NCBI GenBank assembly: GCA_042408215.1
Contig: JAYFMW010000017.1
Coordinates: 1-64,000, forward strand
DNA from: Microcoleus sp.
GTDB lineage: Bacteria; Cyanobacteriota; Cyanobacteriia; Cyanobacteriales; Microcoleaceae
DNA length: 64,000 nucleotides
Direction: 5' to 3'
Below, piece after piece: positions 1 to 9,531 of the stretch (position 1 is the first letter of the stretch; each line of letters starts with the position of its first letter). The translations under genes and the position numbers were made by a program. A model generated the notes under the pieces. The model ran no database searches. It worked only from the letters and a program-made list of their open reading frames with translations, and was not told the origin of the DNA.

Positions 1-552
1 GCGGGATATGAAGTGGTGGAAGTTTTCAGGGAGACTGCCAGCGGTGCCAAATCCGATCGCCCGGAGCGCCAAAAAATTATGGCGGCAGCGCAGGCACGAA
101 AAGTTTCGGCGGTGCTGGTGACTGAGGCTAGTCGATGGAGCCGCAGCACGATCGACCTGCTGGGAACTTTGCAAAGCTTGAATGCTTGGGGCGTGTCGCT
201 GGTTACGCTGTCTGGAATAGGGTTAGATTTGAACACGCCGCAGGGCAAGTTGATGGCGGCGGTTATTTCGGCGATCGCTGAATTCGAGCGGGATTTAATC
301 CGGCAGCGGGTGAAGAGCGGGATGGCGGCGGCGAAGGCGAAGGGTCAGAAGTTTGGGCGGCCGCGAGTGTCGGAAAGTGCGATCGCCCTTGTTCACCAGT
401 TGAGGGCGCAAGGCAAAAGTTATTCGCAAATTGCTGAAATTTCTGGAATCAGTCGGACTAAGGTTTTTGAGTTGTGCCGCGCCATGAATGAATCACAGCT
501 ACGACCTGTACCGGCGACATTCCAGCGAGTAGGGCCGATCGCACTTCTTTAA
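1..552 (+). CDS. Serine recombinase/resolvase family protein, 5' end outside window
   Basis: ETASG...RPE, V-x-E-x-SRWSRS, TPQGKLM..I.AIAEFERDLI.QRV..G...AKAKG..FGRP motifs and a C-terminal HTH; the frame is open back to base 1. Confidence 0.9.
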   Translation, partial: AGYEVVEVFRETASGAKSDRPERQKIMAAAQARKVSAVLVTEASRWSRSTIDLLGTLQSLNAWGVSLVTLSGIGLDLNTPQGKLMAAVISAIAEFERDLIRQRVKSGMAAAKAKGQKFGRPRVSESAIALVHQLRAQGKSYSQIAEISGISRTKVFELCRAMNESQLRPVPATFQRVGPIALL

Positions 553-1393
553 GTCTCGCTTGTGCTATCTCAGAATCGATGTTGCCACCGGGAATGTGAA
601 CGTGCCGCATTCGGGAGCCGTCGCGATAAGAGAATCGGAAATATTCCCCGCTGCGGGCCGTGCCACGAGGCCGGTAAGTAGATATTGCTCGTGATACAGA
701 ATCATCCTCAGCAACCTCGACAATGTATTCTGTATCAGCAACCTCGACAGTGTATTCTGTATCAGCAACCTCGACAGTGTATTCTGTATCAGCAACCTCG
801 ACAGTGTATTCTGTATCAGCAACCTCGACAGTGTATTCTGTATCAGCAACCTCGACAGTGTATTCTGTATCAGCAACCTCGACAGTGTATTCTGTATCAG
901 CAACCTCGACAGTGTATTCTGTATCAGCAACCTCGACAGTGTATTCTGTATCAGCAACCTCGACAGTGTATTCTGTATCAGCAACCTCGACAGTGTATTC
1001 TGTATCAGCAACCTCGACAGTGTATTCTGTATCAGCAACCTCGACAGTGTATTCTGTATCAGCAACCTCGACAGTGTATTCTGTATCAGCAACCTCGACA
1101 GTGTATTCTGTATCAGCAAATGTAGAGGCTGGTGATACAGAATCAATTTCCGGCGGCGCGGGTGCGAGCTTGACTTCATCGGGATAGAGAAAATCCCACT
1201 GGTTGATGTGAGGGTTCCAAAATCGAAGGCGGCCGTCGATCGGATGAACTGCGTTCACTTTGAAAATTTCGCCGCGCTTCACCCAAGCAGCGATCGCCGG
1301 TTTCCTTCGCAGCTTCACCCAGTCGCCAGCTTTGTAAAGGCTGCCTACTTCGGCGGTCGCGGTGTCAAAAAGTGAAAGTTGAGCATTGACCAT
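458..1393 (-). CDS. Hypothetical protein with about 15 ADTEYTVEV repeats and a C-terminal HIPGGN-containing domain
   Basis: ATG start with GGAG upstream; non-repetitive flanks are open in the same frame. Confidence 0.7.
   Translation of the reverse strand: MVNAQLSLFDTATAEVGSLYKAGDWVKLRRKPAIAAWVKRGEIFKVNAVHPIDGRLRFWNPHINQWDFLYPDEVKLAPAPPEIDSVSPASTFADTEYTVEVADTEYTVEVADTEYTVEVADTEYTVEVADTEYTVEVADTEYTVEVADTEYTVEVADTEYTVEVADTEYTVEVADTEYTVEVADTEYTVEVADTEYTVEVADTEYTVEVADTEYTVEVADTEYIVEVAEDDSVSRAISTYRPRGTARSGEYFRFSYRDGSRMRHVHIPGGNIDSEIAQARLKEVRSALLAGMSPVQVVAVIHSWRGTTQKP
709..1118. repeat. 27-bp tandem repeat (CAGCAACCTCGACAGTGTATTCTGTAT), about 15 copies
   Basis: Near-perfect head-to-tail copies with no spacers. 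Confidence 0.97.
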
Positions 1394-1647
1394 ATCGGCA
1401 CTAACTCCTTTGTCAATCGATTTTAGATTTTAGATTTTAGATTTTAGATTTACTTCATCGACGTATTCTTTCAGATCGGGATATTTCATGATTGTTTGTC
1501 TAGCATTGGTAATTGGTAATTGGTAAGTGCTGATCTCTCCCGGCTGTCACTCCACTTTTTGGCAGGTGTCGCCAGTTTTGCAACTAATGCCTTAATGCAC
1601 TGCTACACATAAATGGGCTTCCATAGAAAGTCATTTATCTGTAGCAC

Positions 1648-1923
1648 TCATTTGTTGACGGCTTCTCTAAACTGCTTACCGGCCGAGAATGCCGGAACTA
1701 CCGCAGCGGGGATATCCATCTTCTCCCCGGTCTTAGGGTTGCGGCCTTCACGGGCCTTGCGCTCTTTCGCTTCAAAGGAGCCGAAACCTACCAGCGTTAC
1801 TTTCTCACCGTCGGCAACCGCTTGGGTGATGGAATTTATCAGAGCATCCAACAGAGCATTTGCAGCTTTCTTGGTGGTCTCAGCTTTGGTGGCGGCTAGT
1901 TCTACAAGTTCAGATTTGTTCAT
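1648..1923 (-). CDS. hup: HU family DNA-binding protein (element-borne copy)
   Basis: MNKSELV, VTLVGFGSF, REGRNPKTG, VPAFSAGK signatures. Confidence 0.95.
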   Translation of the reverse strand: MNKSELVELAATKAETTKKAANALLDALINSITQAVADGEKVTLVGFGSFEAKERKAREGRNPKTGEKMDIPAAVVPAFSAGKQFREAVNK

Positions 1924-1968
1924 AAGTGCGATCGGTTTCGGTAATTAGTCATTAGTCATTAGTAACGC

Positions 1969-2001
1969 AAAACCAGCCCCCGTAAGGAGTGCTGGCTTTT
2001 T
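1969..2001. terminator. Hairpin flanked by A/T tracts
   Basis: AAAACCAGC...GCTGGCTTTTT. Confidence 0.45.
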
Positions 2002-2158
2002 GGTTCAGTGGCGGTTTCCTCCTGTCGTTGTTAGATCTCTTGCTGCTGTTGCTGCACTTTGTTCCGCTGCATGTTTTGCTGATGCTTTCTGCGTTCAACC
2101 TCTGTTAATCTCCGTTGGAGCTCAACGATGAACTCCATTTGCACCTGCTTGCGATATC

Positions 2159-2371
2159 TCAACGTGGCTCAAGGATTCTCCCCAACTGCTTTTCTCGTCG
2201 ATAATGTCTCTCCGGGCTTGATATTTCCACTGCTAGCGTCTGAGCAACTCGTCCGAGCTTCTCTCCCAGCCGCTCCGCTTCTCTCGAGTGCCTCGCTCTC
2301 CGTCCGTCTAGTCGGACTTTGTCATCTTCCCCGTACTTCTGTTTCCTGACTTTGCATAGCTTTCGAGTCAT
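2159..2371 (-). CDS. Small basic protein, possibly a degenerate DNA-binding regulator
   Basis: ATG preceded by an AG-rich RBS; divergent from the 2523 operon. Confidence 0.35.
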   Translation of the reverse strand: MTRKLCKVRKQKYGEDDKVRLDGRRARHSREAERLGEKLGRVAQTLAVEISSPERHYRREKQLGRILEPR

Positions 2372-2394
2372 AACTTCTCTCTCTAAATAGATGA

Positions 2395-2439
2395 ACGTCT
2401 ATGAGATCTTGACAGTTATCTCATTAAGACGTCTATGAT
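2395..2439 (+). promoter_or_regulatory. Putative sigma70 promoter with operator-like repeats
   Basis: TTGACA 2409-2414 and TATGAT 2434-2439; ACGTCTATGA at 2395 and 2429; ATGAGAT/ATCTCAT inverted repeat around the -35. Confidence 0.4.
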
Positions 2440-2522
2440 GACTTCAATGTCTGTAATGTAAAAGACTGCACTGCATACCCCAAACATTGATGGGTGGGCA
2501 ACTCCCACCCTTTCCCTAACCT

Positions 2523-4436
2523 ATGTACACCCTAGAAAGCCTTCAACAGAAGAATCTCAAGGAACTCAAGGAAATCAGTCGGCAGCTCAACGTGCTCCCA
2601 TTGGGCGATCGACGGTGCCGCCAAAACTGGATTAATGTCCTCATCGGCACTCAGCCCCCCCTGCTGCAACTGCTGGAAGTTCCCCCCGGTGTCGAACCGG
2701 TTGCTGAGGCGAAACGCAAGCTAGAAGTTCAATCCCAGGAGCCGATCGAAGTTCAAGCCCAGGAGCCGATCGAAGTCGATCAAGTCCAGGAGCCGCCGAT
2801 CGAGTCCAAGTTTGGCCGCATCATTTATCCCAAACCGGCCGTTAAGCCGATCACACAAAATGCAGAAACTAGACCCCAACTCGACAGAACAGAAAGTGCT
2901 GATGTACATAACTGGCGCTCTCATCCCGCCGACTCAGTTCGAGATAGCAGCAGCGCTAAAGCTGAAGCACTGGGAAGCAAGGAAGGCGATCGGGTATTGG
3001 CGCTGTCGGGGAATAGTGAAGCAGTTCGAGGGGGAGTTTTACCCCGTCAGCCAATTGAACTAGCGGCCACATTCAATGACGAACAACCCCCGAAGCTGAA
3101 CGAATATTCCCCAACAGGGTTTGGGTGTCCGAAATGTGGTGCTGCTTACGGCTTGTACATCGGGAAAGACTGCTTGGGTATATCGGAGATTAAATGCTTG
3201 CACTGCGATTTCTCCGAAGGAACACTTGATTGTCCGAGATGTGGCGCTGCCCACGGCTTGTACACCACAAAGGACTACTTGGGTAGAGAGATAATTAAAT
3301 GCTTGCACTGCTGGTACTCCCGAAGAAAACACTACCCCGGCTCGATCTTACTTGAAGCCGAAGAGCCGCCGATCTATGTGCCAGATACGCAAGATGGGAT
3401 TGATTTACAGGATTCTGAGTTTCAAACCACCGAGCCGCCGATCGAGTCCAAGTTTGGCCGCATCATTTATCCCAAACCGGCCGTTAAGCCGATCACCCCA
3501 GCGACCGAAACTTCCCCCGGTGTCGAAAATTTCAAAGACGATCGACCGCCGAACCGTGGCGACGACAATGGCAGAGACAGACTGGAAGTTGAGCCAAAAT
3601 TGAGCCAAAGTGCGATCGTACCAGCGGTCAAAAATTCCCCCGGTGTGAGTCGCAAAACTTCAACAGCCCATCAACTTTTGGAGCTGTTCAAATCCTCGGC
3701 AGTCATTCTTGGGGATTCCCCCGCTGCCGAAACTGAGGCAGAAACGCTCGAAAGTGCGATCGGCTTAGCGGCCAAAAATCTCCTCGATGCTGAAGCCGAT
3801 CAGAATCCGATCTTGACCAACATCACCTTTTCTCCTGGCTTTCTCGCTCGCTATTCCCCGCCCCAGCCTGAGAACATCCACTATCAATCCGACGCTGACG
3901 GGCAACTGAGCCTGCTTGATTTTGAGGTGGAATCGGTAGACGAACCGCCAGACCCGGATGATTTTGAAACCCTCAATGCGTTCCGTGAGGCGATCGCACT
4001 TTGGGATGCTGAACACCCCGAACCGCTAGAAGTGTCTCTGAATTCGATGTCCGAGTGGGCCCCGTGTCCTGATGACTGGTACGAACCCGACATTTTGCTC
4101 GAACTGTCTGAAGTGTTGGAACTCTCACCGGCGATCGAAAGTTCCATCACTTGCAAATTCCTGATTCCTGTTTTTGACGCTTGGTGCGATCGCGCAAACC
4201 GACAAAACGACACCGATGAACCGCCCGACACAGGGATTTTCGCCCGCTTGCCGGGGCCCAAACCGCCCAAATTTCCTCCAATGGCGATCGCGTTGATCGA
4301 CACCGCCAAAAAGTGCTTTAACGCAAATCGGCATACTACACGCATTACAATTGCAGCCCAAGCTCACATTACTCGCATCGCCGCCGGCAGTAGCAGTAAG
4401 TCACCGCGATCGCCTCCGGGAGGTGATGCCATGTAG
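2523..4436 (+). CDS. Hypothetical protein: Rho-N-like N-terminal helix, two tandem CxxC...CxxC zinc ribbons, acidic/Pro-rich body
   Basis: LQQKNLKELKEISRQLNV; CPKC..CLHC and CPRC..CLHC; EPPDPDDF motif. Confidence 0.75.
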   Translation: MYTLESLQQKNLKELKEISRQLNVLPLGDRRCRQNWINVLIGTQPPLLQLLEVPPGVEPVAEAKRKLEVQSQEPIEVQAQEPIEVDQVQEPPIESKFGRIIYPKPAVKPITQNAETRPQLDRTESADVHNWRSHPADSVRDSSSAKAEALGSKEGDRVLALSGNSEAVRGGVLPRQPIELAATFNDEQPPKLNEYSPTGFGCPKCGAAYGLYIGKDCLGISEIKCLHCDFSEGTLDCPRCGAAHGLYTTKDYLGREIIKCLHCWYSRRKHYPGSILLEAEEPPIYVPDTQDGIDLQDSEFQTTEPPIESKFGRIIYPKPAVKPITPATETSPGVENFKDDRPPNRGDDNGRDRLEVEPKLSQSAIVPAVKNSPGVSRKTSTAHQLLELFKSSAVILGDSPAAETEAETLESAIGLAAKNLLDAEADQNPILTNITFSPGFLARYSPPQPENIHYQSDADGQLSLLDFEVESVDEPPDPDDFETLNAFREAIALWDAEHPEPLEVSLNSMSEWAPCPDDWYEPDILLELSEVLELSPAIESSITCKFLIPVFDAWCDRANRQNDTDEPPDTGIFARLPGPKPPKFPPMAIALIDTAKKCFNANRHTTRITIAAQAHITRIAAGSSSKSPRSPPGGDAM

Positions 4437-4602
4437 GATAAATTGCTTGCTTAAGGCGTTTGAACAACTTATCTCCCTTCTGAATCTGAACAGTGCGATC
4501 GTCCCTCGAACCGGTCGATCGCTTCCTCTACCAACCATCATCAAACGTATAAAGATCTATGACTTTTCTGAAAATTTCCCTTCCCGTTTACAAAAGAGAT
4601 AA

Positions 4603-4977
4603 ATGGGACACCTTGAGAAAGACGGCAGAATTGAAGTTAGCAGCGACGTAGATAATCTTTCGGAAGGTTATCAATCTTTAAGACTTGAAATTGAAGAACT
4701 GATTTCAGAACTGAAAGCTGAAAGCCGTTTAGCAGAAGAGGCGTACACATTAGAATGCCAGATCGAAAAAAAAGCTTCCGAGCTAAAAAGACTTCTCAAA
4801 GATATCGAGAGAGCCACAGCACATTATGAAAGCTTGAAATTCTTTTTAATGAATTTGGGCATCGCTCCAACTTCGTCTAGGCTGACATTTGACAAGCAGT
4901 TCTTGCCACAGGACGCATCGCTATCTCAAGTAGAAGTTGTGCCGCTTGAGTCGAGATACCCCGACGACGTTATTTAA
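4603..4977 (+). CDS. Hypothetical coiled-coil protein
   Basis: 124-aa ORF with heptad pattern, in operon-like array. Confidence 0.6.
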   Translation: MGHLEKDGRIEVSSDVDNLSEGYQSLRLEIEELISELKAESRLAEEAYTLECQIEKKASELKRLLKDIERATAHYESLKFFLMNLGIAPTSSRLTFDKQFLPQDASLSQVEVVPLESRYPDDVI

Positions 4978-5035
4978 TCATCAACAAAGAAGCGATTTTC
5001 GGTGACTGAGAATCGCTTCCTACCAACAACTAATT

Positions 5036-5858
5036 ATGGAAATAACCGCCGATTTCAACGACATTTTTTGGAAACCCCCAGAAACAGAATTCCAACCGCT
5101 CCTAGACTTTGAATCCGAAGTTTCCGACGAAGCGCCGTACAACGACATTGCCGTACTCACCAAGAGCCTCAAGCTTAGCTTCCTTGACTACGTGCGACAA
5201 GGAATCATGCTCCACACCGTTCGCCGCTACCGCCTTTATAAACAGCAGTACAAAGATTTTGCCGAATACTGCAAACTTGCTATAGGGCGATCGCACTTCT
5301 ACTGCAAAAAGATTATCCAAGCCGCTCAGGTTTGTTTGGAACTCATCAAGTCCAAATTTGCAACTTCTGCCCAACATCGGTAGCGCAAGCACTCCCAACT
5401 GGTGAAGTTTGCAAAAATTGACGCTTACGGTCAGCAACCAATTAGCGGACAAGTGGCAAACTGTTCTCGATGGATTCCCAGACCACCAAATCACAGCGGC
5501 CAAAATCCAAGAAACTCTTGATGAGAACCCAGAGGACAGAGCCAAGCAAGTCCGCATTGGTGGCAAAGCTTATCAAATACTGGAACAAAAAGCAGCAGCA
5601 GCGGGCATGACAGTCTCTAAGTATCTCGAAATGCTCATCGGCGGCACCGAACCGCCTGACGAAGAACCGCCCGACGATGAATACTGCGGGGAAGGAGAGG
5701 AGTTAACACCAGAAAAAGAGGAAATCTTGGACGATTTAGAGAAGTCTTGGGCCAAAACCAAACCCGCGTCAGATTTCGGCAAAAAGAAACCCTCAAGAAG
5801 CCATAAAAAAGCTATCAACCCCACCATTAGATCGGGCGAAGCGTCCGATTCATCCTAG
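5036..5858 (+). pseudogene. Hypothetical mobile-element protein split by frameshifts near 5360-5435
   Basis: ORFs 5036-5383 and 5409-5858 join into one plausible protein (LYKQQYKDFAEYC...SVAQALP-LVKFAK...KWQTV...ITAAKI) if several single bases are removed. Confidence 0.55.
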
Positions 5859-5874
5859 TTAGTTTTTTAAAACC

Positions 5875-6381
5875 ATGTCTCATAATACTTTCACCTATAG
5901 GCATTCTGACTTACCCGTGTTTCGCCCTGAAATCAAAGCAGAAATTATTGCCTTGGGTCTTCATGCCGATGACTTGATTCTCAAGAGCCACGGCAACTAC
6001 CGGGAGCTTGAAGAGTTGGCAGAAACTCTCGACAACTGTCTGAATACTTGCGAGCTAAACCTTAACTCGATCCGAATAATCCCCGACGACAGCCCACAAC
6101 CCGCAACTGTCAGCTTGCGAGATTTGCCAATTGAACAAAAACAACTTATTTATTCTTGTTCAAGAACCAATTCGATTTTGCTGAATTTGCTGAGTGAACT
6201 TCTTAATCAACCTTGCGAACAAATAGCCCGCGACATAGCAGAACAAGTCGCTTTGCGTCAAGAACCAGTAGATACAAGCGAAATAGAAAATTTCATCGAC
6301 AACGTAATGCTGCCGCTCGTTCAACAAACCGAAAAAAATCCTTCCGCTACAGGTCATTACGTTTTTAAACGAATCGACTAA
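5875..6381 (+). CDS. Hypothetical protein
   Basis: 168-aa ORF followed by a terminator. Confidence 0.65.
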   Translation: MSHNTFTYRHSDLPVFRPEIKAEIIALGLHADDLILKSHGNYRELEELAETLDNCLNTCELNLNSIRIIPDDSPQPATVSLRDLPIEQKQLIYSCSRTNSILLNLLSELLNQPCEQIARDIAEQVALRQEPVDTSEIENFIDNVMLPLVQQTEKNPSATGHYVFKRID

Positions 6382-6386
6382 GCGCA

Positions 6387-6425
6387 AAAAAAAAGCGGTT
6401 GAATCCCGACTTCAACCGCTTAATT
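6387..6425. terminator. Intrinsic terminator-like hairpin
   Basis: A-tract, AAAGCGGTTGAA-loop-TTCAACCGCTTT. Confidence 0.7.
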
Positions 6426-6473
6426 CCAAGCTGTCTCGACTATTTTTTACACAATGGCATCTATTAATTTACC

Positions 6474-6773
6474 ATGCACCAACCTCAAAATCGACAGATT
6501 GCTGATTTAGTGCAATCCGCCAAAGAACAATATGGCGATTTTAGCGACGCAAAAAAACGAGAAATCTTTGAAATCATCAAAGAAGCCAAATCGCGCGGCT
6601 TGTTGCGAAAGCAGCCTCACGACAAATGTTTGAGCGATTATGTCAACGCCGCCAACCACCTACTGAGAAGCTATCCAACTGAAGAATTCACAGCAGCGTT
6701 GAATCGAAATCTTGATTACGTATATGTGTACGTTGCCCTTGTCGGCACCAACTCCATCCTCACAACCGCCTGA
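6474..6773 (+). CDS. Hypothetical protein directly upstream of the bridge-like RNA
   Basis: 99-aa ATG ORF. Confidence 0.6.
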   Translation: MHQPQNRQIADLVQSAKEQYGDFSDAKKREIFEIIKEAKSRGLLRKQPHDKCLSDYVNAANHLLRSYPTEEFTAALNRNLDYVYVYVALVGTNSILTTA

Positions 6774-7020
6774 CGAGGGCCGCCTATGGAATCAGCGGCT
6801 GAAACTCCCCTTATTAAGGGGGGTAGCGGATCGATTCCAACCCGAACCGCCACAGCATCGCGGCCGACTTAAGGCTTTCATAATGAAACAAGCTCTATAG
6901 GGCTTTTAGCTTTTCATAAGCTTGGTCGGGTTTGCGCGCTGTAGCCCTGCGTGCTTTAAGAGTGAATTAGGCTCATTTTATTGCGGCCTTTGGGTGATTC
7001 ATAAGCACTTTGTTCCAGGG
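6774..7020 (+). ncRNA. Putative IS110 bridge RNA (5' hairpins, target-binding loop 6852-6942, donor-binding loop 6945-7020)
   Basis: Two hand-folded stem / internal-loop / hairpin modules sharing GCTTT...TGAA and TTCATAAGC; loop strands match the element end and flank at 8254-8268. Confidence 0.8.
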
Positions 7021-7041
7021 AGTAAACCTCACCCTATAAAC

Positions 7042-8262
7042 ATGAAAATACTAGGCGTTGATATTAGCAAAGCCTCCATTTCTGCGTGCCTGCTTTTAGA
7101 AAAAGCCAACGCAAACGCCGATGCGCGCGATACTTTGTACGAAACCAAATTTCATAAATTTTATGCAGATGCCGCTGGAATTTGCGGACTGCTCGATCTG
7201 ATTGGTGATGGCGAGGCGATCGCAATAATGGAGCCGACCGGCATCAATTATCAGAAATTGTGGGGAACTCAACTTGCCAGAGCCGGCGTTGAAGTGCGGC
7301 TTGTGGGACACGCAGAATTAAGATCTTTTCGCCACCACCACCTTGGTTTGCCTGATAAAGACGACGACGCCGATGCTCTAGCACTGGCGCTGTACGGCTG
7401 GGAATATCTCGATTTGCCTCGCAGGTTTTTGCAGATTCGAGAAGGAGCGATCGTAAAAATCCGCGAGTTCGCTTTGCGGTTGGCACACCTGAACAGGGTG
7501 CAAAGTCCCATAATTAACCGGGCGAGGCAAGATTTAGCTTGGCAATTCCCCGAAATTGCGCTGATCCGCTCAGTGCGTTACGGCGAAAGAGTACCTTTGC
7601 TGTGGGGTTGGCTTTCGGGCGAAGGACCAAGCAAAAAATACGATCGCCTTTATGCCGAATCGATCGGCTTAGGCCTCACCGAATCTGTACGCCAGCACGC
7701 CGCCAGACTTTGCAGCTTGCAGCGCGAAGAAATGGTAATTGAACAAGAACTTTTTAAATTGCTTGCCGCTCCGCAGTTTGCCCGCTACCGAAAAGTTTTC
7801 GTCCGGTTTGGATTTGGACAACGAGTCGAAGCGCTGCTGCTAAGTCAAATTTACCCGCTGCAAAATTATCTTGCAGCCGACGGCACGCCAGAAGTAAAAA
7901 TCGCCAAAGGTCGCAAATCCGGCAAGCCAACCAAGCGATACCTTTCTCTGCGGCGGTTCATGAAAGCTTTAGGGTGCGCGCCCTCGCAGGAAAGTAGCGG
8001 TGATTTGCAAAAGTCTAAAGTTATGGGAGGTTCCGCGCTATGTCGGAAAGCGCTTTGGCAATGGATTTTTACCAGAATCGAGCCCAAGAATCGCCGGCTA
8101 TCAAACGACATAGGCTGCTACCTTGGAGAAATTTTAGATTCTGAAAAAGCCAGCGGTCGGCCGGTGAAGCTTGCCCGATCGCGCGTCGCGGCCAAAGCCG
8201 TAAAAATGCTCTTTAAAGAGCTCGTCAAGGCGCTCGCTCAGGATAAAAAAATGTTAGAGTGA
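7042..8262 (+). CDS. IS110-family (DEDD RuvC + Tnp serine) recombinase, 406 aa
   Basis: MKILGVDISK, MEPTG, KDDDADA, LGCAPSQESSG, GG..LCRKALW; ATG 7042 preferred over TTG 6922. Confidence 0.9.
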   Translation: MKILGVDISKASISACLLLEKANANADARDTLYETKFHKFYADAAGICGLLDLIGDGEAIAIMEPTGINYQKLWGTQLARAGVEVRLVGHAELRSFRHHHLGLPDKDDDADALALALYGWEYLDLPRRFLQIREGAIVKIREFALRLAHLNRVQSPIINRARQDLAWQFPEIALIRSVRYGERVPLLWGWLSGEGPSKKYDRLYAESIGLGLTESVRQHAARLCSLQREEMVIEQELFKLLAAPQFARYRKVFVRFGFGQRVEALLLSQIYPLQNYLAADGTPEVKIAKGRKSGKPTKRYLSLRRFMKALGCAPSQESSGDLQKSKVMGGSALCRKALWQWIFTRIEPKNRRLSNDIGCYLGEILDSEKASGRPVKLARSRVAAKAVKMLFKELVKALAQDKKMLE

Positions 8263-9078
8263 AAATCTTTGCGTTGCCTTGCTATTTTTTGATGATGTTT
8301 AGCAAGGCGTTTAACAGCTTTGGGTCTGCGATTACTGCCTTTCTTTTTGCGAGAAACAGCCTTATTTCGCAGCTTTTTATCAATCTCAGCTTTTCTAGCA
8401 AACTGAGGGATAGATACGGTTTCACCATCACTGGTAATCAAGAAATCCTTCAGTCCCATATCAATACCGACAACATTATCAAGATTGACATCAGGACTAA
8501 TTGTAGGAACCGTTACATCTTGCAATGTCAGCACCACATACCAGCCATCAGCGTTCTTGACGATCTGAGCAGTTTTAATTTTGAATCCATCGGGAATAGG
8601 GCGGTGCAAGATAATCTTCACATCGCCAATCTTAGATAGAGTTGATGCGATTACCTTTGATGCAGTCTTGCGACATCTGAGTATAGGTAAAACTGTGATA
8701 TCTACCACGACCTTTAAATCTTGGCTTACCAGAGCGTTTACCTGCTTTGTCAGCACTGATATAACGGTCAAAAGCTTTCTTGACTCTAGCAATGCAATCC
8801 TGAAGCACTTGAGAATGAATGTTTTTGTACTCAGGAAATAGCTTTTTGGTATTGAGTAGATCTCGCTTTTGCCAGTAATAATCAGGCTGTTCAACTATGG
8901 GAGCAATGCTACATAATACGAGAGAGCATGAATTAACAGGACTACGAGTAGACTCATACCAGTTAAATCTCTCTGCCAGCCTATAGTTGTACTGCATACG
9001 CAACAAGTCAAGCCACTCATCGAATTGATGAGCTTGGGCTTTGTTAGGGCGTAATTTGTACTTGTAGGCTGTTATCAT
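8259..9078 (-). pseudogene. tnpB: IS200/IS605 TnpB, frameshifted near 8640 and truncated after RKDFH
   Basis: AYKYKLRPN HTH, SQVLQD, GKPRFK, GIDMGL (RuvC-I), KKKGSNR; RuvC-II, Zn finger and RuvC-III absent. Confidence 0.92.
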
Positions 9079-9351
9079 GCCATAATTGTACCATAAGATA
9101 GATGGTATATAGTAATGAAAAAAATAACTTTTCATCTGGCAGATCAAGAGTTTGATTTGCTTGAATCCTACTGTGAGCAGACCGAAAGAGGTAAGACTGA
9201 AGTGTTGAGAGAATTGATACGCAGTTTAAAGATTAGCTCTAAAAGCAAAGATAATTGTTAATCAACGGGGTATCGAACCCCGTTGATTAACACGCTTACA
9301 TCCCGTCACTCAAGGTCGTACCGTTAGAGTGCGGGGCTTTCGCTTAGTAGC
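8260..9351 (-). mobile_element. Left half of an IS200/IS605-family (RHH + tnpB) element
   Basis: tnpB, divergent RHH gene, hairpins at 9258-9290 and 9302-9335 resembling a left end; outer boundary approximate. Confidence 0.7.
9115..9261 (+). CDS. Ribbon-helix-helix (CopG-like) protein divergent from tnpB, 48 aa
   Basis: MKKITFHLADQEFDLLESYCEQTERGKTEVLRELIRSL...; not in the ORF track. Confidence 0.8.
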   Translation: MKKITFHLADQEFDLLESYCEQTERGKTEVLRELIRSLKISSKSKDNC

Positions 9352-9531
9352 TAACGATTCCTGGTACACTGACTCTAAAAATCCTGGCCCCGTCGCCGTT
9401 TTAGTCCTAGATTCTAGAATAATTCTAAGTTTTCAACCTAGTTTTGTCGTTTCAGCCGTTGAGTACGCTAAGTTTACATGAGTTTGCTTACTAGACAGTT
9501 TCTAGATTTCATCCAGGAATTCCGGTGAGGC

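Follow-up and report, generated by a model that had tools for sequence, protein, structure and literature searches.

A candidate bridge RNA headed by a hammerhead ribozyme motif, upstream of a divergent IS110-family recombinase in a large cyanobacterial element

The window analysed here is a stretch of 64,000 nucleotides from Microcoleus sp. (assembly GCA_042408215.1, contig JAYFMW010000017.1, called C17 below, positions 1 to 64,000), the first part of which belongs to a mobile element that ends with a gene for an IS110-family recombinase. The region in front of this gene had been proposed in a sequence-only reading to encode a bridge-like RNA, and it was compared here with the corresponding regions of homologous loci. 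The RNA and the adjoining gene comprise the following features:

6766 to 6829, forward strand: hammerhead ribozyme motif, open at stem I, recognised from the alignment, covariance model R1, pair counts and the centroid fold; stem I is CCGC 6766-6769/GCGG 6826-6829, followed by the core CUGACGA 6770-6776, an extra G at 6777, stem II 6778-6783/6795-6800, GAAA 6801-6804, stem III 6804-6810/6818-6824 closing with A-U and C-G, and GUA with H17 = A6825; cleavage is predicted between 6825 and 6826
6788 to 6793, forward strand: loop II segment GGAAUC, predicted from covarying classes to form a tertiary pseudoknot with GAUUCC 6833-6838
6826 to 6850, forward strand: 5' stem-loop of the bridge RNA (GCGG...CCGC), from the fold and as comparative helix 1
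6852 to 6942, forward strand: module 1, read as the target-binding loop, with left-target guide ATAATG 6880-6885 and core AA 6886-6887, right-target guide AGCTT 6908-6912 and core complement TT 6913-6914
6945 to 7020, forward strand: module 2, read as the donor-binding loop, with left-donor guide AGAGTG 6959-6964 and core AA 6965-6966, right-donor guide GGG(U)GA 6992-6997 and core complement TT 6998-6999
7029 to 7034, forward strand: UCACCC box in the 5' untranslated region (UTR) of the recombinase gene, complementary to the right-donor guide GGGUGA at 6992-6997
7042 to 8262, forward strand: IS110-family (DEDD/RuvC-like plus Tnp domain) bridge recombinase of 406 residues from ATG 7042, identified with Pfam, an AlphaFold2 model and Foldseek

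The protein encoded from ATG 7042 matched PF01548, the N-terminal DEDD/RuvC-like domain, with 26.9 bits (E 4.6e-6) and PF02371, the C-terminal Tnp domain, with 19.8 bits. Among 27 aligned family members, the first domain was matched by all of them at E <=0.01 (best E 6.4e-12) and the second by 19 (best E 7.6e-7). When an AlphaFold2 model of the recombinase (predicted local distance difference test, pLDDT, 86.8; predicted template modelling score, pTM, 0.80) was compared with known structures by Foldseek, the top ten matches were the IS621 and ISCro4 recombinases in their bridge-RNA complexes (chains of 8wt6, 8wt9 and 9t56), with E 9e-10 to 6e-8 and template modelling scores of 0.50-0.57 on the target; Nop5-like proteins, TasR and RuvC came next. 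Identity to IS621 and ISCro4 over the structural alignments was 16-18%. The product of this open reading frame (ORF) is, therefore, a divergent member of the bridge-recombinase fold. In the 27 sequences D7, D107, D108 and D111 were invariant and E64 nearly so, the DEDD assignment being by position only; S293, S302, S319 and S331 were the invariant serines and are, likewise by position only, candidates for the nucleophile.

For the analysis of the RNA, homologous loci were taken from the best 80 of 197 stretches encoding a homologue, all of them in cyanobacterial assemblies and with 57-77% identity to the window protein. The stems of module 1 (ACAGC/GCTGT 6852-6856/6938-6942, CCGACT/GGTCGG 6864-6869/6924-6929 and AGGCTT/AAGCTT 6872-6877/6918-6923) and its cap AAGCTC-TATA-GGGCTT at 6890-6905 could be read directly from the sequence, as had been claimed, and so could the stems of module 2 (CCCTG/CAGGG 6945-6949/7016-7020 and GTGCTT/AAGCAC 6951-6956/7003-7008), its cap AGGCT/GGCCT (6969-6973/6985-6989) and the identical 3'-side repeat TTCATAAGC, present at both 6913-6921 and 6998-7006. 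Both the minimum free energy and the centroid structure of 6852-7020 contained the two modules. The stability of this single-sequence fold was within chance (z = -1.5; 16 of 200 shuffles were as stable) and, therefore, the case rests on the comparison with relatives.

In the 300 nt before the homologues, the alignment sets in sharply at AACCGC-CUGAYGA and extends to the start codon. From a structure-blind MAFFT alignment of 28 homologous leaders (the compact-architecture subset of 72 distinct ones), RNAalifold recovered both modules unaided, with 12 of 25 pairs compensatory. For the structure including the 5' hairpin, 96.3% of the cells in this alignment could pair compared to 90.9% after shuffling, and changes on both sides were found in 14 of 30 pairs compared to 6.6 in shuffles, values reached in 0 of 500 shuffles in either case; as a control, sliding the partners by 1-3 columns lowered pairing to 18-58%. 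The stems thus covary across homologues, and the module-1 loops differ between homologues and follow their flanks. The proposal of two related stem, internal-loop and hairpin modules in front of an IS110-type recombinase was borne out by this covariation and by the matching of loops to DNA described below.

The three additional hairpins that had been noticed within 6777-6850 also exist (6778-6800, 6804-6824 and 6826-6850), but their nature had been missed: two of them are stems II and III of the hammerhead motif, and the third is the 5' hairpin of the guide. This last one (-8.6 kcal/mol; 0 of 200 shuffles were as good) is built in part from the 3' strand of hammerhead stem I and from bases of the pseudoknot partner and, therefore, it competes with the ribozyme fold.

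The 3' loop strand of module 1 is a 5-nt variable word followed by UU, and its reverse complement was compared with the right flank of each element. In 71 loci with a recognisable right end, defined as the first match to the donor word and with three loci shortened by a contig end, all five bases agreed in 42 and four of five in 13, giving 283 matches over 355 bases compared to 102 on average and at most 139 in 2000 permutations. The 5' loop strand of module 2 is GAGAGUG-AA, and the element ends in CTAGAGTG-AA at or just past the recombinase stop codon. When right ends were located independently, via the right-target match, the six bases before AA were identical to the loop in 44 of 56, in classes that covaried with it (AGAGTG 35, AGACTG 7, AGAATG 1, GGAGTG 1); in locus L078 the loop and the right end formed the pair GAGGCUGAA with TAGGCTGAA. 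The ends of the element, its cargo and its flank are as follows:

1 to 8263, forward strand: part of the element within the window, running off the contig start, delimited by the empty site on contig C3 of the same genome and by contigs diverging at 8264
1 to 552, forward strand: serine resolvase/invertase cargo gene, truncated at its 5' end by the contig start (Pfam Resolvase E 1.2e-31, and HTH_7; PHROG DNA invertase E 8e-40)
6474 to 6773, forward strand: last cargo ORF, 99 residues, without a family match, from the ORF reading; its stop is TGA 6771-6773
8254 to 8263, forward strand: right element end, consisting of the left donor TTAGAGTG 8254-8261 and core AA 8262-8263, and overlapping the recombinase stop at 8260-8262
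8264 to 9354, no strand assigned: right flank, a truncated TnpB/IS605-like copy 97% identical to the intact C3 copy, with the right target AATCT at 8264-8268
C11:86623 to 86636: probable left end, on contig C11 of the same assembly, reading ATAATG-AA-TCCCCA

The 5' loop strand of module 1 is a variable word followed by AA. This left-target word was not found within 1.5 kb upstream in any locus and, therefore, the conserved boundary at 6763 is not the element end; the conserved AACCGCCTGA at that position, a candidate for the left boundary, was rejected for this reason and corresponds to hammerhead stem I plus core. A left end of the form AA-TCACCC, the exact complement of the loop, was rejected as well, as its matches were at chance level, with one near-miss that was the true AA-TCCCCA junction on C11. 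The left junction was searched for in 14 elements with at least 17 kb of upstream sequence, 17-40 kb being fetched in other genomes. The 6-nt loop word followed by AA-TCCCCA was found 10.9-16 kb upstream in 10 of 13 elements of other genomes and, with the site at C11:86623 in the own genome, in 11 of 14. As for the exceptions, AATCCCCA forms the very start of the L021 contig, a 5/6 match with TCCCCA occurs at -10440 in G001, and in L007 no left junction was found within 20 kb; an exact 9-mer at -13438 in G001 was discarded, since it lacks the TCCCCA end and is probably due to chance.

In these 11 elements the RNA lies behind the cargo genes, 10.9-16 kb from the left end. The idea that the RNA sits at the left end of the element was, therefore, abandoned: the element is about 12 kb long with its cargo, and the RNA gene is more than 10 kb away from that end. 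The left end AA-TCCCCA pairs with the 3' strand of module 2, UGGG(U)GAUU, with one U bulged, and the RE-LE (right end-left end) junction in donor form reads ...CTAGAGTG-AA-TCCCCAGC....

Both 5' guides are followed by AA, both 3' guides by TT, and AA is present at both junctions. The crossover core, which had been proposed to be TG, possibly extended to TGAA, is instead AA as read from these alignments, nearly always preceded by G, in a natural code of 6 + 2 + 5; TGAA is the conserved end of the donor guide. Contig C3 carries an empty site, TTATAATG-AA-AATCT, inside a paralogous TnpB gene, where the window reads ...TTAGAGTG-AA-AATCT; over a longer stretch, ...CACCGATTTATAATG-AA-AATCTTTGCG on C3 is replaced by ...TTAGAGTG-AA-AATCTTTGCG in the window. 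The C3 site is the uninterrupted target, and its left half, ATAATG-AA, is exactly the module-1 word at 6880-6887. Taking loops and DNA together, the RNA is almost certainly a bridge RNA in which module 1 is the target loop and module 2 the donor loop.

Two side observations concern these sites. An unguided T at -7, unmatched by the loop, occurs in targets and right ends, often within TCTA or CTAG at -9 to -6 (L008, L017, L074, L082, L066, G002, G004, the own C11 and C3 sites, and window 8254-8257), which may point to a part of the site that is read by the protein or is unprogrammed in some other way. Besides, 74 of 80 loci have a CACC(C) box at most 45 nt before the recombinase start, and the sole variant of the right-donor guide, GGGCGAUU in L082, is matched by AAUCGCC in the 5' UTR, whereas the DNA left end of L082 stays TCCCCA. 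The UCACCC box and the right-donor guide may form an RNA-RNA pairing that couples the guide to translation.

The sequence immediately before the guide was analysed in the same way. The centroid fold of 6762-6832 is a hammerhead three-way junction, and the window carries the full core (CUGACGA, GAAA, the A-U pair and GUA). In 51 aligned sequences C3, G5, A6, G8, A9, G12-A14, A15.1-U16.1 and C15.2-G16.2 were invariant, U4 was present in 49 and replaced by C in two, and H17 was C or A. The stop codon TGA 6771-6773 of the last cargo ORF coincides with U4-G5-A6 of this core; the ORF is homologous in the nearest relatives only, an ORF of at least 60 codons ending at that TGA in 17 of 72 loci.

Covariance model R1, built on the motif, matched the window at 68.8 bits (E 2.6e-15) as the sole match in 64 kb. 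Of 81 sources, 78 had a single R1 match per locus, in all cases on the strand of the recombinase gene and shortly before it. Over 76 distinct sequences, in an alignment fitted to the R1 model and hence somewhat favourable, 93.9% of the cells could pair compared to 70.4% after shuffling, with a covariation score of 0.575 compared to 0.158 for shuffled and at most 0.114 for slid partners. Changes on both sides affected 4 of 5 pairs in stem II and 5 of 7 in stem III (9/12). The pseudoknot between loop II and the tail, of 5-6 bp and made with a strand 3' of stem I, was fully complementary in 45 of 72 sequences compared to a permutation mean of 25 and a maximum of 33. Its classes were GACUC/GAGUC, GACCC/GGGUC, GAAUC/GAUUC (the one in the window), GACAC/GUGUC and GAGUC/GACUC, to which divergent loci add GACGC/GCGUC and GACGU/ACGUC.

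When 151 sampled cyanobacterial genomes were searched with R1, matches were found in 12 of them, from 10 of 79 genera. Apart from the match in the window, 16 of 19 had a recombinase homologue about 180-360 nt downstream, in some cases with 27-40% identity and with guide RNAs that look different. The three exceptions were L135, cut 196 nt past the motif, L133, without a recombinase within 1.5 kb, and a remnant on contig C3 of the own genome. From these sequence patterns, it is probable that the hammerhead is catalytically active and defines the 5' end of the guide.

The reading that we favour, with a probability of roughly 0.78, is that positions 6826 to about 7020 encode the bridge RNA of the recombinase at 7042-8262, which would mobilise a cargo element of about 12 kb, and that the hammerhead frees the 5' end of this guide. 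Transcription would enter the guide region from the cargo side, and the hammerhead at 6766-6829 would cut after A6825, as sequence and covariation suggest, separating the guide from the upstream transcript. Such a cleavage would leave a 5'-OH at G6826, with the ribozyme body staying on the upstream RNA. The first four bases of the guide and the pseudoknot partner would then refold into the 5' hairpin 6826-6850, making the switch irreversible. By analogy with IS621, the complex of recombinase and guide would synapse the RE-LE junction of the circular element, CTAGAGTG-AA-TCCCCA, with an NNNNNN-AA-NNNNN target, and strand exchange would take place at the AA core.

The resemblance to IS621 (Durrant et al. 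2024, PMC11208160; Hiraizumi et al. 2024, PMC11208158; structures 8WT6 and 8WT9) includes the recombinase fold (Foldseek E 9e-10), an RNA encoded upstream of the recombinase gene on the same strand (PMC11208160), a dinucleotide core repeated in all four guide strands, and a similar target geometry, here of 6 + 2 + 5 nt. In contrast, the proteins share only 16-18% identity, with no match in the PDB by sequence, the core is CT in IS621 and AA here, and the element measures about 1.5 kb there and about 12 kb here. The 177-nt RNA of IS621 is reported to start at a sigma-70 promoter reconstituted across the RE-LE junction on excision (PMC11208160), whereas in the present element more than 10 kb separate the RNA gene from the left end and a hammerhead motif precedes the guide. 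One feature of known bridge RNAs is, thus, missing, namely a non-coding left-end location with a circle-junction promoter. As the RNA gene lies so far from the left end and after the cargo, a circle-junction promoter of the IS621 type cannot drive the guide. A scan for promoters and terminators gave one promoter-like site compared to 2.6 expected from shuffles, and nothing usable.

Several observations weigh against the favoured reading. The window protein scores slightly under the Pfam gathering cut-offs (26.9 compared to 29 bits for PF01548; 19.8 compared to 21.3 for PF02371), and a sequence search of the PDB with this protein and the 27-sequence family profile gave no match. The right target of the window is predicted to be AAGCT and was found to be AATCT, a match of 4/5. 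The right-donor pairing needs the bulge and shows no covariation, all 11 left ends reading TCCCCA. The flanks of the element come from different loci, since the left end on C11 follows a phosphoketolase gene and not TnpB, whereas the right flank is the truncated TnpB; when the left half of the interrupted TnpB copy was sought in the assembly, only the intact C3 copy was found. The mismatch suggests a guide-directed deletion or rearrangement after insertion, as would result if the right junction had recombined a second time, with a TnpB target, and the DNA in between had been lost.

The remaining points concern the ribozyme. A Rfam scan of window 5500-9500 and 6740-7060 up to E 10 gave no hammerhead match, and a scan of 20 loci at gathering score gave no relevant family; the best scores elsewhere, in L025, were 16.4 bits for Hammerhead_3 (gathering 48.5) and 12.1 for RAGATH-1 (gathering 56.3), so that every Rfam hammerhead model stays under threshold. 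Stem I has 4 bp, or 2 bp in the Nostoc clade, and is conserved, without any compensatory change. In the window and its nearest relatives there is an extra base between A9 and stem II, a kind of insertion that some natural hammerheads carry. The guide is kept without an intact hammerhead in at least two loci (L066, with no R1 match, and L010, with a 24.5-bit fragment) and, therefore, the ribozyme is not indispensable. Finally, contigs from RNA libraries cross the predicted cut (6719-6855 in run X1, and from before 6818 to 6979 in run X5). They could represent uncleaved precursor or DNA; all four sequencing runs were available as assembled contigs, in which RNA ends and strand are not visible. 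At 90% likeness no X1 contig covers 6856-7025, an absence from which nothing can be concluded.

These ribozyme observations, from the Rfam scores to the contigs across the cut, would fit a real bridge RNA whose hammerhead-like domain does not cleave, being instead a conserved structured 5' extension that binds a protein or assists folding, or what was once a ribozyme and is now retained for its structure, with the 5' end of the guide set by a promoter or a host RNase. We consider this unlikely. Structure alone would not need an invariant catalytic core while the stems change freely, the GUC or GUA triplet is always placed exactly at the junction with the first base of the guide, and at least seven covarying classes are seen for the loop II pseudoknot, a type of contact that stabilises natural hammerheads.

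It is far less likely that the region is an ordinary structured leader regulating the recombinase by attenuation or translational control, and not a guide. Its position directly upstream of the gene, the complementarity between module-2 loop and the UCACCC box near the start codon, and the weak z-score of the single-sequence fold would all be expected of a leader, but such a leader would have no reason to carry loop strands that spell or complement the insertion flanks and element ends locus by locus. Translation from TTG 6922 as an N-terminal extension of the recombinase, with module 2 coding, is scarcely credible: the frame is open from 6922 in the window itself, but it is not conserved, as 67 of 80 loci have a stop no more than 20 codons before the recombinase start (median 5.5 codons) and only 3 of 80 keep at least 40 open codons; the alignment indels are not multiples of three and, with numbering from ATG 7042, the Pfam domain already starts at residue 4.

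Returning to a bridge RNA released by a hammerhead, the guide RNA itself is, by its sequence and covariation, real and a divergent new member of the known bridge-RNA class. What appears to be new is its place deep inside a conserved element of 11-17 kb, headed by a hammerhead motif. A broader scenario, which is only tentative, is that an IS110 lineage in filamentous cyanobacteria has swapped the circle-junction promoter for a ribozyme. The guide would then be the tail of a cargo operon, cut free by the hammerhead and refolded one-way into its 5' hairpin, and the UCACCC pairing would couple guide maturation or occupancy to recombinase translation. If so, an RNA-guided DNA recombinase would here, for the first time, have a natural ribozyme-guide cassette.

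Bridge recombinases are under development as programmable genome-writing tools. To our knowledge, the natural making or trimming of the guide is known only for IS621-like elements, via the junction promoter, and most bacterial hammerheads have no known function. If cleavage takes place as predicted, a 5' end defined by a hammerhead would be a second route of guide biogenesis and a new biological role for bacterial hammerheads, and it would offer a ready cassette for expressing bridge RNAs from long or polymerase-II transcripts. The lineage also shows that an IS110 recombinase can act as the stable integrase of a conserved plasmid-like element of 11-17 kb, and not only part of a minimal insertion sequence. 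In addition, dozens of natural insertions provide a 6 + 2 + 5 target code with an AA core for a recombinase as divergent as this one (16-18% identity to IS621 and ISCro4).

Natural hammerheads (Rfam clan CL00010; RAGATH-1, RF03152) share with the motif the conserved core, the three-helix junction, the GUH triplet and a tertiary contact of loop II. The motif differs from them in falling below every Rfam threshold, in its open stem I of 2-4 bp, and in that the tertiary contact is a pseudoknot to a strand 3' of the cleavage site, the predicted 3' product being the guide RNA. Engineered designs in which a guide RNA (gRNA) is flanked by ribozymes (ribozyme-gRNA-ribozyme) exist, and in them a self-cleaving ribozyme trims the guide from a longer transcript, as is predicted here. 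Those are laboratory constructs, whereas the present arrangement would be a natural one, kept across recombinases diverged to about 27% identity. In PMC11208160 (Methods), a synthetic bridge RNA was followed by a hepatitis delta virus (HDV) ribozyme. In the library searched by full text, no paper connected bridge RNAs or IS110 elements with a natural hammerhead. Sun et al. (bioRxiv 10.64898/2026.10.21.760802) report clusters of bridge RNAs and, independently of these, a divergent cluster of hammerheads; in the text searched, figures and supplements aside, no connection between them is stated.

Hu et al. (bioRxiv 10.64898/2026.08.14.744561) describe IS110 elements reaching about 100 kb through cargo derived from plasmids and, therefore, large size as such is already known. 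As in the present element, an IS110 recombinase with a bridge RNA moves many kb of plasmid-like DNA in the elements of that preprint, and the half-match recombination proposed there for odd boundaries would also explain the mismatched flanks found here. In contrast, the text of the preprint makes no mention of cyanobacteria, a ribozyme, a resolvase or a promoter. Compared to what is described there, large size is here a conserved property shared throughout a lineage (in 11 of 14 elements the AA-TCCCCA left end lies 11-16 kb upstream), and the cargo contains a resolvase in the window, or a tyrosine recombinase in other genomes, together with mostly unknown genes.

The extent of the element in the window was estimated across two contigs. 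C11 ends 3.4 kb past its junction, in the ribosome-binding-site-like AAGGGGAAG followed by ATGGGAC. As C11 ends in this way and the window opens about 30 residues into the resolvase, C11 and C17 probably abut, judging from these ends, with a gap of about 85 nt, which would give an element of about 11.8 kb. The assembly break falls about 85 nt into the serine invertase/resolvase gene inside the element, and an invertible or heterogeneous segment could be its cause.

The elements as a group measure about 11-17 kb with their cargo. Those of four other genomes share a tyrosine recombinase instead of the resolvase, and a tblastx comparison of the window element with four others found almost nothing in common in the cargo. 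The remaining cargo ORFs had no family match except weak NikA-like and Tlde1 ones, and no resistance genes were detected among the cargo ORFs scanned.

The stretch from 8254 to 9354 is 97% identical to part of the intact TnpB/IS605-like element on C3. On the minus strand, at 8238-9147, the interrupted TnpB is read as two overlapping ORFs (8238-8894 and 8632-9147) compared to a single ORF of 432 residues in the C3 paralogue, and thus it has suffered a frameshift besides the truncation.

The hammerhead-like remnant on C3 (C3:447667-447728, minus strand, about 1500-1562 of L119; R1 33.1 bits, E 1e-4) starts at the stop codon of an ORF similar at its C-terminus to ORF 6474-6773. A GGGTGATTT remnant comes next, no recombinase was found within 1.5 kb, and the locus is probably what is left of a relative of the element. 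In one group of Nostocales (L031, L032, L040, L047, L050-L052, L056, L057, L060, L065, L073 and L081-L083), 30-40 nt are inserted between A9 and stem II, and their GCGATCGC palindromes give rise to one or two additional hairpins.

Precisely at 8264, contigs of runs X1 and X6 part from the window sequence and continue into other DNA and, therefore, the element or close relatives of it occupy different sites in other samples. These junctions fit mobility and confirm the boundary at 8263|8264. The loose end of X6 beyond 8264 resembles the right flank of L010, and the same run also holds an uninterrupted TnpB site.

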